From a virus (lineage: Duplodnaviria; Heunggongvirae; Uroviricota; Caudoviricetes), in the IMG/VR virus record IMGVR_UViG_2617270952_000001: DNA of 19,808 nucleotides; one strand, written 5' to 3'. Positions 1,280 to 12,162 of this stretch are shown here, piece after piece. The position numbers were made by a program, and so were the translations under genes. Under the pieces are notes generated by a model. It worked only from the letters and a program-made list of their open reading frames with translations, ran no database searches and was not told the DNA's origin. Within the stretch, counting starts at the first letter, position 1, and each line of letters starts with the position of its first letter.

Positions 1280-1451
1280 AACCCACTGGATTATTTTTAT
1301 GAAAGAGGCATCCAGTGAGTAGATTCGTAAGGCTACAGATACGTATATCTGAATAATTAAATTCAGTTCTGTAAATAAAATTTAATCCTTAACCGGATGG
1401 ATTTCTGCACCCTCAGAACATCAGGAGGCCGCCCGAAAGGGCGGTAGTGAA

Positions 1452-1562
1452 ATGCGAAAGTTCAAAATTATTATTGAAACGGGAATAGCTGGTGGAGATT
1501 TTGAGGATGTATTCGAAGTGGACGATGACGCAACACCTGAGGAAATTCATGACGGAGCATAA
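1452..1562 (+). CDS. mini-ORF (36 aa, acidic) preceded by an AGGAGG-hairpin-ATG arrangement
   Basis: ATG at 1452. AGGAGG at 1423-1428 is separated from the ATG by a perfect 6-bp stem with GAAA loop (1429-1444). Stop overlaps the next ATG (ATGA). Confidence 0.3.
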   Translation: MRKFKIIIETGIAGGDFEDVFEVDDDATPEEIHDGA

Positions 1563-2341
1563 GAAATTTTCTTTAACTACTGCAATTACTCATACCACGA
1601 AATAAAAGACGATGAGGAAGAACAAAGTGGCTGATTTTTGTTCAGCTAAATATAACATCAGTTTTGAAGAGCGGGATGAACTATTAATGGACTATGGTGA
1701 GTTACGCGGTGGAAGTGCTGCTGATGTCGAATCCTAGCGTGATGACTATGAAGCGGGAAAAACTCCGGTCGAAGCATATTGTGATGAGTGGGGCGATGAA
1801 TGAGCGAGATTAATTATCAGGAAGGGCATGAAACGGCGGGGGAAGCAAAACCAGTGGCATGGCGATATCGCTACGTGAAAAAAGGCGTTACGGACTTTCA
1901 GGGGAAGTAGTGGTCTGGTGACTGGAAATATGTACCGAAAAAAGAGGATTGTAACGACAGGCCGAACTATCAAATTCAGGCCTTATTCACTGCCTCACCA
2001 GTCCCAGTTACATCAGAAGAACTGGTTAAAGCTGTGCACTTTTATGAACAACTAAAACGCGAAAATCCACCAACATCCGGCAACTAGATTAATGGATTAA
2101 CTATGTCGGTTAAACGACCAGCCAACTGAAAAAGCGGAAACCTGATTACAGGTTGCCAGATAAGGCAATGAGCTACCTGGCGCGGAACGGACTGATAAGT
2201 ATGGGGAATGTTTTACGATGAACCTTTAGACTAAAGAGTTTGTAACGCTATGTAAGTGATTTTTTCTGGTTTAGATATTTATATGTCCGGCCAAATTGAG
2301 GTGTGTTTAAATGTAATTGCACATTGATTGTAGGAGGAATA

Positions 2342-2779: not shown

Positions 2780-4420
2780 ATTGTTAACACCAAGCTGTAA
2801 TGTCCCCTTTGAACCATTCTAAAATGTCCCCAGACAATTCTCTGGGGGATTTTTCATGATCAAAGAGACTGTTACGATGAGTCATAAGGAACTCCACCGA
2901 CTTCAGATTATTCAGGAACAAGCTGCGGCACGCATTGGCATTTCTATTCGGCAGGTTAAACGTCTGGTGCAACGGTATAGAAATGAAGGGCCTTCTGGTC
3001 TGGTTTCCCACCGACGTGGAAAGCGTCCTAATAATTCCTTTTCTACTGAATTCAGAGCAACAGTAATTTCACTCCTCAAAGGCCGTTACGCTGATTTTGG
3101 ACCTACGTTTGCGTGCGAAAAATTGCGCGAGATACACGGTTTATCTTTATCCGTTGAAACTCTCAGAAAGTGGATGATAGAAGAGGGGTTATGGCGTGAA
3201 CGCCGTCGTAAAATTGCCCGTATATATCAACGCCGCATGCGACGACCATCTTACGGTGAACTGATCCAGATTGATGGCTCACCTCATGACTGGTTTGAAA
3301 ATCGAGGCCCCAGATGTACACTGATCGTTTTCATTGATGATGCCACCAGTGCGTTGATGGCGTTGCGTTTTGTGCCTGCTGAAACAACCCGGGCTTACAT
3401 GGAAACCCTCCGGGGTTACCTTAATGATCATGGCGTACCGCTCGCTCTCTACTCTGATAGACACAGTATATTCAGGGTAAATAACCCAGAGCGGGAAGGT
3501 GAGCTGACCCAGTTCACTCGTGCGATAAAGACACTGGGCATCGAGCCAATCCATGCCAACAGCCCGCAGGCAAAAGGGCGGGTAGAGCGCGCCAATCAGA
3601 CACTACAGGACAGGCTGGTCAAAGAAATGCGGCTTCAGAATATCAGTGATATTGAAACAGCAAATGCATGGTTGCCGACCTTTATTGAAGCCTATAACAA
3701 CCGGTTCGCTACGTCGCCTCGTACTACTGATAATGCTCATCTTGATGTGCACCATTCTGAAGAGGAACTGGGTTATATCTTCAGCCTACAGGCGAAGCGC
3801 GTTCTGTCTAAAAATCTCACTTTCCAGTACAAAAGCAGTGCGTTTCAGGTACGCAGTGAGGGCCGGGGATATCGACTTAGGCATTCGGTTGTTACTGTAT
3901 GCGAGAACTTTGACGGTGAAATTAACGTTCTGTATGACGGGAAAGCGCTGGGCTGGGAAAAGTATGTTGATGGCCCGGAGCCTATACCACTGGATGATGA
4001 AAAGAGTGTCCATGAACGAGTGGATAATGCCCGTATTGATTTACGCTCAAAATACTATGTTAAACCTAAAGCTGACCATCCCTGGCTTACGCGCCGAACG
4101 CAAAGTCATCAGCAAGTTAAGCCCCCGAAGTTACCTAAAAAGAAGCCTGATCCCGATAAAAAAGATTGAAACCAAGATCGATTCGGTTGAGTGCATATCC
4201 ATTCATAGGGTAGATTCTTAAGTCGCGTTTCTGGTGTTCATTTTCGGGTGGTTTGTTACTTGTTTTACCGGGGATATGCCAGAAACGCGCTGAGTCAGTC
4301 TGGGCGGTGCGCGTAATGAGGCGTTATGGTAAATAGCCTATGCTAATGTCCGCTAAGAGCAAGAAGCGGAAGTTGGCAGTTTTGTGGACTGTCCCCACAA
4401 AAGTGACTACAGAAATAGTT
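2780..4420 (+). mobile_element. putative insertion sequence carrying the DDE transposase; termini not resolved
   Basis: Transposase ORF flanked by short repeated motifs (AATGTCCCC at 2799-2807 and 2823-2831; TAATGTCC at 4344-4351; TGTCCCC at 4390-4396). I could not find clean terminal inverted repeats, so the boundaries are approximate. Confidence 0.3.
2856..4169 (+). CDS. DDE transposase with retroviral-integrase-type (rve) catalytic core and N-terminal helix-turn-helix; IS481/ISNCY-like single-ORF transposase
   Basis: 437-aa ORF. Catalytic-core signature IQIDGS ... LYSDRHS ... KGRVERANQTLQD (D, D, E with K/R), N-terminal HTH (IGISIRQVKRLVQRY), basic C-terminal tail. Confidence 0.85.
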   Translation: MIKETVTMSHKELHRLQIIQEQAAARIGISIRQVKRLVQRYRNEGPSGLVSHRRGKRPNNSFSTEFRATVISLLKGRYADFGPTFACEKLREIHGLSLSVETLRKWMIEEGLWRERRRKIARIYQRRMRRPSYGELIQIDGSPHDWFENRGPRCTLIVFIDDATSALMALRFVPAETTRAYMETLRGYLNDHGVPLALYSDRHSIFRVNNPEREGELTQFTRAIKTLGIEPIHANSPQAKGRVERANQTLQDRLVKEMRLQNISDIETANAWLPTFIEAYNNRFATSPRTTDNAHLDVHHSEEELGYIFSLQAKRVLSKNLTFQYKSSAFQVRSEGRGYRLRHSVVTVCENFDGEINVLYDGKALGWEKYVDGPEPIPLDDEKSVHERVDNARIDLRSKYYVKPKADHPWLTRRTQSHQQVKPPKLPKKKPDPDKKD

Positions 4421-8558: not shown

Positions 8559-8858
8559 AAAAATTCCTTAATACTGATAACTTGGCGCACTATACACACG
8601 TTCCTGAAGAAAGCTATAGTTTTTTGATGGGGTTGAAGATGGCTGGATGTCTAAAATAAACATTGCTTCATATGTTCAACTATGCGTTAATGATTGCGTC
8701 GGTTTGAAGAACAGACGATATACGAAGTAGTTTACTAAAGCAGTTCTCATTTCAGGTGTTATTCACTTATTCCTTCTTTGAGTCTCTCCAATTAAGTACG
8801 AAGTCGTTTCTGTTATGCAAACCATTTATGCCGAAAGGCTCAAGTTAAGGAATGTAGA

Positions 8859-9074
8859 ATGTCAAATAAAATGACTGGTTTAGTAAAATGGTTTAACGCT
8901 GATAAAGGTTTCGGCTTTATTTCTCCTGTTGATGGTAGTAAAGATGTGTTTGTGCATTTTTCTGCGATTCAGAATGATAATTATCGAACCTTATTTGAAG
9001 GTCAAAAGGTTACCTTCTCTATAGAGAGTGGTGCTAAAGGTCCTGCAGCAGCAAATGTCATCATTACTGATTAA
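8859..9074 (+). CDS. cspB: cold-shock protein CspB (CspA family)
   Basis: 71-aa product [71 protein letters not shown]; about 300-nt leader typical of cold-shock genes. Confidence 0.95.
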
Positions 9075-9355
9075 AATTCATCGCTCGTCTGTATACGATA
9101 ACGAAGAAGGCTGATGCCTGAGTAGAGATACGGACAGAGTAGTGAATATTGGATCTCTTTAATAAAAAGTAAGGAGGTCCAATACATGAAACAATGGCTA
9201 GCATATTTGGCAAAATCTTAATCAGGAAAAGTATGCTAACCATTGTGGTGAAGTGCAGGTTTGCTGCATGAATAGTTTTACAGCAGAAGCTAACTGCTGG
9301 CATGGCAAAACAAAGTGCGTAAGTGGATGACTCCCACAAAAAGCACCACAATCTC

Positions 9356-11383: not shown

Positions 11384-11745
11384 GGTAATATTAAATCGGA
11401 ACATTTACATCGCGGAATGTAAAATTTAAATAAAAAGGACTCTTCCATGAGCCAAAATTCCTGAAATCTTAAGGGTAAGATAAAAGGTCTTAATCAGAAT
11501 GACACGTTTTATTAATAAATAAAGCTATTCTTTCATTGCTGTGTTTTTCTTTACAAAAGTAATCCTTGCTATGGGTGGTTAATCATGCGTTAATGGTGTT
11601 CTGGTTTGTTACAAATTTATCTGAAGCAGTCATTGTTATAATTTTATTATTTGTACCTCTTGAGATTTCCTTGTTGGTTTTTCTCTCTGATATTTTTTTT
11701 CGGACCATTCTGCCCAAGGGCTAATTTCTTCAAAAGGTAATAATT

Positions 11746-11958
11746 ATGTCTAACAAAATGACTGGTTTAGTGAAATGGTTTAACCCTGAAAAAGGTTTTG
11801 GTTTCATCACGCCGAAAGATGGCAGCAAAGATGTGTTTGTCCATTTCTCAGCAATTCAGAGCAACGATTTCAAAACATTAACTGAGAATCAGGAAGTTGA
11901 ATTTGGTATTGAGAACGGACCTAAAGGTCCTGCCGCTGTTCATGTAGTGGCGCTTTGA
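11746..11958 (+). CDS. cspI: cold-shock protein CspI (CspA family)
   Basis: 70-aa product [70 protein letters not shown]; long AT-rich leader. Confidence 0.95.
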
Positions 11959-12162
11959 GGTAGACAATATTACAAACCATATTCACTTTAGATGCCCGTG
12001 TTGTCATGGTTCCCAGTATAGAACATCATCTTTTGATGTTTCTGACATGAATCCTTTCGGGGCAAAATGTATCTTTTGTAAATCAATGATGATTACATTT
12101 GATAATATTTCACAATACTTAAATGCCAGCCGTCTGTCGTTGGATTTAAAAAAGTGAAAATG

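Follow-up and report, generated by a model that had tools for sequence, protein, structure and literature searches.

The DNA analysed here, referred to as the window, is the 19,808-nt sequence of the IMG/VR virus record IMGVR_UViG_2617270952_000001 (Caudoviricetes). Positions 1349–2221 of its plus strand carry a conserved leader, a ribosome-binding region in which a hairpin stands between the Shine-Dalgarno (SD) sequence and the start codon, and the remains of three short genes, designated A, B and C below. Overall, this segment is best explained, with a probability that we put at about 0.6, as a decayed three-gene operon that lies behind a portable leader and whose translation would be initiated across the hairpin.

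The SD sequence AGGAGG (1423–1428, plus strand) is separated by 23 nt from the ATG at 1452. As an earlier note made from the sequence alone had pointed out, the first 16 of these nucleotides (1429–1444) form the GC-rich hairpin CCGCCC-GAAA-GGGCGG, with a perfect 6-bp stem and a GAAA loop; a seventh pair, G1428·U1445, is optional. The remaining 7 nt (TAGTGAA, 1445–1451) make up an A-rich spacer with no SD-like tetramer, so that removal of the hairpin leaves 7 nt between the SD and the start codon, an effective spacing of 6–7 nt. Folding calculations show that the hairpin dominates the predicted structure of its 42-nt context (-16.9 kcal/mol, z = -3.85, with none of 200 shuffled sequences as stable), and it remains the dominant structure when 81 nt are folded.

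Two other identities for this hairpin were considered and rejected. It does not qualify as an intrinsic terminator, because no T-run follows the stem (the 3' flank reads TAGTGAAATG on the plus strand and CCTCCTGATG on the minus strand) and because the hairpin was not listed in the terminator scan. The combined promoter and terminator scan, which covered positions 1100–2900, placed no promoter in the leader either. Like the boxB element of phage lambda, the hairpin is a short GC-rich stem that is capped by a GNRA-type loop and located in a lambdoid early region. It differs from boxB in having a tetraloop instead of a pentaloop, in its position flush between SD and start codon, and in its recurrence at that position before many genes, and no boxA-like CGCTCTT is visible in positions 1340–1428. 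A search of positions 1300–1500 against Rfam 15 gave no match at the gathering threshold, and relaxing the E-value cut-off to 10 returned only hits with E of at least 1.2.

The arrangement is that of a split ribosome-binding site: the SD is 23 nt from the ATG, a stem-loop lies wholly between the two, and the spacer TAGTGAA offers no alternative SD. In bacteriophage T4, an intervening hairpin shortens the distance between SD and AUG from 22 to 5 nt for gene 38 and from 27 to 11 nt for gene 25, and mutations that destabilise the intervening structure lower translation of these genes (PMC3014915, PMC7297116). In the mechanism proposed here, the stable hairpin would be looped out on the 30S subunit, and the sole SD, 23 nt away in the linear sequence, would then be presented about 6–7 nt from the AUG, a bridging like that of the split sites of T4 genes 38 and 25. 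We infer this loop-out from the anatomy of the site, its conservation and portability, the lack of another SD and the constrained spacing, and on that basis hairpin-bridged initiation seems to us slightly more probable than the sum of its alternatives. The comparative data presented below strengthen the suggestion of the earlier note that the site is a structure-dependent initiation device; as such it is plausible, with a null result for covariation in the stem. In the window itself, the device could drive at most a truncated peptide of 36 residues.

Comparison with other prophage sequences indicates that the leader is not private to gene A but reusable. The IMG/VR counts given here and below cover the matches listed in each scan; loci overlap between the scans, and duplicates were removed only when their local context was identical, so the numbers of loci are not numbers of independent evolutionary events. 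A scan for the exact hairpin yielded 124 matches, in about 90 of which an SD-like hexamer, mostly AGGAGG, lies directly 5' of the hairpin and a TAA or TAG directly 3' of it; in the MEITKE family, TGG or GGG takes the place of TAA or TAG. The DUF7167 family, to which gene A belongs, is encoded downstream in only 29 of the 124 matches. The other genes that follow the exact hairpin with its SD code for a 72-residue membrane protein (MTTLFR, MKHYLE or MVTLFR) and for the xTELTK, MQDIKE and MEITKE proteins. Two copies of the cassette are present in some contigs and in phage ArgO145, and in most contexts conservation reaches about 100 nt further upstream.

The leader was also sampled through its upstream part, with the hairpin left unconstrained, which gave 116 non-identical contexts. 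The hairpin position was occupied in all 116, by the reference sequence in 65 of them and by a stem with all six pairs in 94. The SD, flush with the stem, was AGGAGG in 92 contexts and AGGAGA in 16 (108 together). Among the 102 contexts that were classified, the spacer from hairpin to start codon measures 7, 6, 9 and 9 nt in four families (7 nt in 61 of 61 DUF7167 contexts), so that for the predicted stem the effective spacing is 6–9 nt in these four families, and in 96 of the 102 it contains no GGAG, GAGG or AGGA. A fifth family has an 11-nt spacer with a GGAG of its own. A 68-nt consensus of the leader was found in 2377 of 5426 complete Escherichia coli genomes (about 44%), with up to five copies in each and always unannotated; among species-representative genomes it was found only in E. 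coli and Shigella. From these comparisons, the core formed by the SD and the hairpin heads no fewer than five unrelated families of accessory genes in lambdoid prophages of Escherichia and Shigella.

The conserved leader upstream of the ribosome-binding site (1349–1422, plus strand) was delimited by comparison across contexts and by folding of the alignment. It contains an AT-rich inverted repeat, CTGAAT-N6-ATTCAG (1349–1366), and a second hairpin, GAGGG-N9-CCCTC (1396–1414). According to RNAalifold, TCCT (1386–1389) can pair with AGGA (1423–1426) of the SD and thereby enclose the second hairpin, a pairing that might weakly occlude the SD. In the window, the leader itself is decaying, because a G>T substitution at 1398 breaks one pair of the second hairpin. 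The same substitution creates an ATG at 1397, where relatives have AGG and no ATG. This ATG opens a 16-codon open reading frame (ORF) on the plus strand (1397–1447) that runs through the SD and the hairpin to a TAG (1445–1447) located 5 nt before the ATG at 1452.

In the DUF7167 loci, the stem variants comprise one fully compensatory haplotype (CCACCC/GGGTGG), several changes that preserve a G·U pair and also mismatched stems before an intact gene A. In the sample of 116 contexts, C>T substitutions in the 5' arm, which keep G·U in the plus-strand RNA, occur in 32 loci, as opposed to 10 loci with pair-breaking G>A changes in the 3' arm. Where the SD is AGGAGA, the seventh pair becomes A-U instead of G·U. 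Several results weigh against bridging by the hairpin. Among 25 distinct haplotypes of the DUF7167 leader, no measure of covariation rose above shuffled controls; 92.6% of the haplotype cells were paired compared with a shuffled mean of 92.8%, and only the one haplotype is fully compensatory. In the sample of 116 contexts, changes that preserve and changes that break pairs are about equal in number when counted by haplotype (7 vs 6). At least one mismatch is present in 22 of the 116 contexts with gene A still intact, and a few recombinants that have lost the SD or the 5' arm keep gene A open. The A-rich spacer could by itself allow SD-independent initiation. Moreover, the element has a distribution limited to Escherichia and Shigella, and its high identity may therefore reflect recent spread, not selection.

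The DUF7167 genes of Klebsiella and Enterobacter have no hairpin. They carry a plain GGAGG, 4–7 nt from the ATG and overlapping the stop codon of the preceding gene, a spacing that is about the same as the bridged effective spacing in the window. A diverged form of the hairpin was sought in distant DUF7167 genes of Klebsiella, Enterobacter and Pseudomonas (4 of 12 possible look-ups); these lacked it and had either an ordinary SD or a start tightly coupled to the gene upstream. The hairpin is therefore a feature of the E. coli leader and not of the DUF7167 family. A search for loci with a profile of the distant homologues returned almost only E. coli copies.

Some of these observations would also suit a different role, in which the hairpin is an element of mRNA stability, processing or insulation, for example by blocking exonucleases or ribosomes that arrive from upstream, and initiation proceeds independently of the SD, with the help of ribosomal protein S1, on the unstructured A-rich spacer, AGGAGG being at most a standby site. 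Every spacer is indeed A-rich and free of structure, mismatched hairpins are tolerated before an intact gene, and covariation in the stem is not significant. Yet AGGAGG or AGGAGA abuts the stem in 108 of the 116 contexts, and the distance from hairpin to AUG in four unrelated families, 6–9 nt, is that of a normal SD to its AUG. Further, it is only the family with the 11-nt spacer that has acquired its own GGAG, and in the DUF7167 genes without a hairpin a canonical SD stands about as far from the start as the bridged one effectively would. We regard both the stability role and the SD-independent start that goes with it as unlikely.

Lambdoid phages have mosaic genomes in which conserved linker sequences mark gene boundaries and accessory genes travel as moron-type modules. 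The SD-hairpin core could accordingly be mainly a recombination linker at the boundaries of accessory genes, conserved through recent spread or hitch-hiking. Like such linkers, it is a short conserved intergenic sequence next to interchangeable genes with breakpoints at its edges: homology breaks directly 5' of CAGGAGG in contexts of the ArgO145 type (in ArgO145 itself it begins exactly at TCAGGAGG) and directly 3' of GGGCGG(TA), the point from which the downstream genes differ, and some recombination joints fall inside the hairpin. Its restriction to Escherichia and Shigella and its near invariance point the same way. What a linker leaves unexplained is that four gene families have no other SD, that the SD invariably abuts the stem, and that 5'-arm changes preserving a wobble pair are three times as frequent, per listed locus, as pair-breaking changes in the 3' arm. 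In addition, the conserved unit, unlike the known linkers, coincides exactly with a translation-initiation region, and the leader, unlike a moron, has no detected sigma-70 promoter or intrinsic terminator. As the main reason for conservation, recombination is thus a rather improbable explanation; as a second role it may well coexist with translation, because the breakpoints in homology lie at both edges of the core.

Regulation offers another explanation, namely that the hairpin, with or without the leader, is bound by a phage or host RNA-binding regulator of several genes, or that UCCU:AGGA pairing occludes the SD. It would agree with the occurrence of an identical GAAA-loop hairpin and leader before several genes, in up to five copies per genome, and with the RNAalifold pairing of 1386–1389 with 1423–1426. 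This helix, however, has only 4 bp and is invariant, the upstream leader is missing altogether from the short, ArgO145-type contexts, the loop varies in some copies (GGCA, TAAA, AAAA), and no candidate regulator was identified, which makes a regulatory site highly improbable. Hairpin-bridged initiation is the reading that we retain. A broader version of it, in which the core of about 25 nt and its leader of about 100 nt would constitute a dedicated portable translation-initiation cassette, a natural multi-gene family of hairpin-bridged sites that would serve as a crossover point as well and possibly as a shared control point, is put forward only tentatively.

The SD of the window is too distant in the linear sequence and has a hairpin between it and the AUG, as in T4 genes 38 and 25 (Gold 1988; Nivinskas et al. 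1999; Malys & Nivinskas 2009; reviewed in PMC3014915 and PMC7297116), and like the T4 sites the arrangement is kept among close relatives but not shared by more distant homologues of the gene concerned. The T4 sites each serve a single gene and were proven by mutagenesis and structure probing, whereas here one nearly identical core, with a predicted structure, stands before five or more unrelated genes of temperate lambdoid prophages; a phage may carry it twice, and the gene downstream of it in the window is dead. A literature search for split ribosome-binding sites returned no lambdoid example, and neither the hairpin sequence nor the name DUF7167 turned up in any paper of the collection searched. 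To our knowledge, split sites have been described only for a handful of single genes, among them T4 genes 38 and 25 and E. coli thrS, and reuse across unrelated genes is the unusual feature of the present one. If the hairpin does bridge the SD to the AUG, its copies would form a natural series for measuring how the ribosome accommodates a looped-out helix, gene finders and calculators of ribosome-binding strength would mis-score such starts, and the mosaic joints of lambdoid phages would include a linker that doubles as a functional sequence.

Gene annotation in the databases is affected as well. Many DUF7167 proteins (P0004 and similar entries of 87–93 residues) carry an N-terminal extension of 27–33 residues (…QEAARKGGSE…), and several of these entries extend upstream through the hairpin. 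The extensions are the SD and the hairpin read in frame, artefacts of gene calling in cases where the ATG is mutated or an upstream start was picked.

Downstream of the leader, the window retains genes A (1452–1634), B (1627–1803) and C (1800–2221), all on the plus strand. Intact versions of A (60 residues), B (58 residues) and C (171 residues) are present in many phages and prophages and show a sense codon wherever the window has an in-frame stop, as seen in an alignment with vB_EcoS-640R1, vB_Apl-pPE4, a Rac-type prophage, the Stx2a phage ArgO145 and IMG/VR loci; in annotated phage examples, A and B are called as intact ORFs with about 89–93% identity. The ratio of nonsynonymous to synonymous substitution rates (dN/dS) is 0–0.18 among intact alleles, and A, B and C are therefore real protein-coding genes; comparisons with the window allele give 0.13–0.87. 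Intact homologues, disabling lesions and relaxed constraint are thus all observed, as expected of pseudogenes. Judged from these alignments, the chain of short ORFs in the window is almost certainly a decayed accessory operon of three genes. In this lineage, an operon A-B-C with overlapping stops and starts has lost each gene through ordinary mutations: AAA>TAA in A, TGG>TAG in B, two amber codons together with deletions of 4 and 90 nt in C, and further amino-acid changes.

Gene A encodes a protein of the DUF7167 family (Pfam PF23768), which is matched from residue 2 with 51.6 bits against a cut-off of 24.4 bits when the internal TAA is read as lysine. The ATG at 1452 is its start codon, because the profile begins at residue 2 and because the distant DUF7167 homologues all start at the equivalent methionine. 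In the window, the DUF7167 frame is interrupted at codon 37 by TAA (1560–1562), where all intact relatives have AAA (Lys37). The ATG at 1452 consequently opens the 36-codon ORF that the earlier note had described as the first of its chain, and this ORF (1452–1562) lies within gene A. Relative to the nearest intact allele, gene A of the window has four nonsynonymous changes and one synonymous change. Its stop codon, TGA at 1632–1634, overlaps the start of gene B at 1627; relatives read ATGGCTGA there. An AlphaFold model of the gene A product, with two strands and a helix, has a predicted local distance difference test score (pLDDT) of 87, and a Foldseek search of the PDB with this model gave no match below E = 0.47. 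Searches of PHROGs and Pfam with the products of all three genes returned only families of unknown function.

Gene B (58 codons, PHROG 519) was delimited by alignment to intact alleles. It starts with GTG in the window and with ATG in relatives, and it is interrupted by TAG at 1735–1737, where relatives have TGG (Trp). Its dN/dS is 0–0.18 among intact alleles and 0.22–0.29 for the window allele, and no pseudogene is annotated for it in the record examined. The TGA that ends gene B (1801–1803) overlaps the ATG of gene C at 1800 in the form ATGA.

Gene C (PHROG 660) has 171 codons in intact relatives; it was defined from the annotation by PGAP, where it is labelled 'hypothetical protein; frameshifted; internal stop', and by alignment to alleles of 171 and 132 codons. 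In the window it is interrupted by two amber codons, one at 1908–1910, where relatives have CCG, CAG, ATG, CTG or TCG, and one at 2085–2087, where they have CAG. It has also lost 90 nt in frame at about 2061/2062 and 4 nt, with a shift of frame, at about 2118/2119, and it ends with TGA at 2219–2221. Within its dead 3' part, the minus strand has a terminator-like hairpin, AACCTG-TAAT-CAGGTT (2139–2154), followed by TCCGCTTTTT, which could terminate leftward transcription from the 2248–2505 region.

The four coupled ORFs that the earlier note had placed in this segment correspond to fragments of these pseudogenes and to one spurious ATG made by mutation, judging from the same alignments. No start codon exists at 1559, where positions 1559–1561 read ATA, and no ATGA links the first two ORFs; the nearest ATG, at 1549 and within an ATGA, is internal to the off-frame ORF 1492–1605, and its TGA is out of frame with the ORF that begins at 1452. 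The ATG described at 1613 exists at 1612, where it was produced by an allele-specific substitution inside gene A. The ATG at 1800 does open a 36-codon ORF that ends at TAG 1908–1910, and its frame does continue past that codon to TAG 2085–2087, for 95 codons in total. The amber codon said to split a 95-codon gene is accordingly real, but the ancestral gene C has 171 codons and the stop at 2085 is its second amber; likewise, the alignment bears out a longer gene in place of 1800–2087, though one of 171 codons from which the window has suffered two deletions. The overlaps between A and B (1632–1634 over 1627) and between B and C (ATGA at 1800) had gone unnoticed, as had the nonsense codons of A and B; the overlaps become visible only when the in-frame stops are read through. 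The proposal of a decaying early or nin-type segment is supported by the finding that many phages and prophages carry A, B and C intact; homologues with the same stops and no longer ancestral ORF, which the earlier note had named among the grounds for refutation, were not what the comparison found.

The possibility that the in-frame stops are functional, as suppressible ambers or sites of programmed read-through in genes that are still expressed, was raised by the fact that three of the four are TAG. We find it scarcely credible. Gene A is interrupted by TAA, gene C is frameshifted by its 4-nt deletion, and the stops occur in no intact allele and only in the diverged allele of the Qin type, in which nonsynonymous changes are also raised. 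A stop that is read through would be expected to be conserved across functional homologues, and each of these is a sense codon in every intact allele; a tRNA search of the window, moreover, found no tRNA gene and thus no suppressor tRNA. Decay of the operon is, by comparison, well supported and ordinary, because A and C are already annotated as pseudogenes and the same allele is found in 484 genome records.

Positions 1300–2300 match many E. coli chromosomes, and also the induced prophage PhiR42_1, with 99.8–99.9% identity. On a chromosome with annotation, the genes upstream of the segment are, in order, dicA, dicC, a YdaT-family gene, a gene labelled replication protein O (a label taken from a phage record), a DUF977 gene and a gene for an S-adenosylmethionine (SAM) methyltransferase; downstream of the 1349–2221 segment lie genes for an ISNCY transposase, ydfW, flxA, ydfV, relBE and hokD. 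By this gene content, the window can be assigned to a defective lambdoid prophage of E. coli of the Qin type, and the segment, which follows the replication-type and methyltransferase genes, corresponds in position to the nin region of lambda. Identities to the window allele are bimodal: 484 records of complete E. coli genomes reach at least 99%, and about 1430 fall between 80 and 95%; from the common Qin allele, the window differs by one single-nucleotide polymorphism, at 1842.

Context, order and annotation are the same as those of the annotated Qin pseudogenes in the dicA-dicC-relBE-hokD region. PGAP/RefSeq already flags 1452–1634 ('DUF7167 family protein, internal stop') and 1800–2221 as pseudogenes, so the status of A and C was known; the pseudogene nature of B and the ancestral state of each lesion are added here. 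As routine prophage decay that is already annotated, the pseudogene chain is of minor importance.

Homology to the reference Qin prophage begins only at position 587, and positions 1–586 are unrelated sequence. The DUF977 gene, expected at 414–836, has lost about its first 57 codons at the junction near 587, where the unrelated sequence contributes a 149-residue ORF on the minus strand (197–646). Downstream of gene C, a 59-residue hydrophobic ORF with a strong ribosome-binding site, TAGGAGGAATAATG, occupies 2342–2521 on the plus strand and overlaps an 85-residue ORF on the minus strand (2248–2505) that is called 'hornerin' in GenBank phage records. Neither ORF has a Pfam match, and the small membrane protein on the plus strand looks like the more credible gene.

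A match to the sok/hok RNA (Rfam RF01794, 104 bits) at 2611–2782 on the plus strand is followed directly by an intact ORF for an ISNCY-family transposase of 437 residues (2856–4169, plus strand). The insertion sequence was probably inserted in or beside a hok/sok locus, because related phages have the hok ('host killer') gene at that position. Farther downstream, two full-length matches to the cspA thermoregulator 5' untranslated region (8698–9090 and 11600–11985, plus strand; 158.8 and 112.8 bits) presumably belong to prophage-borne genes for cold-shock proteins.

Two database records encountered in the comparisons deserve mention. The Qin region is present in NZ_CP026085.1, which is labelled as strain DH5alpha, and includes some genes that we take to be absent from K-12 MG1655; the strain label may be wrong. 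PP818812.1, 'Actinobacillus phage vB_Apl-pPE4', with Actinobacillus pleuropneumoniae as the recorded host, carries a module of the E. coli type with about 90% identity to that of the window and 100% in the leader, which suggests an origin from an E. coli prophage or a mis-assigned host.

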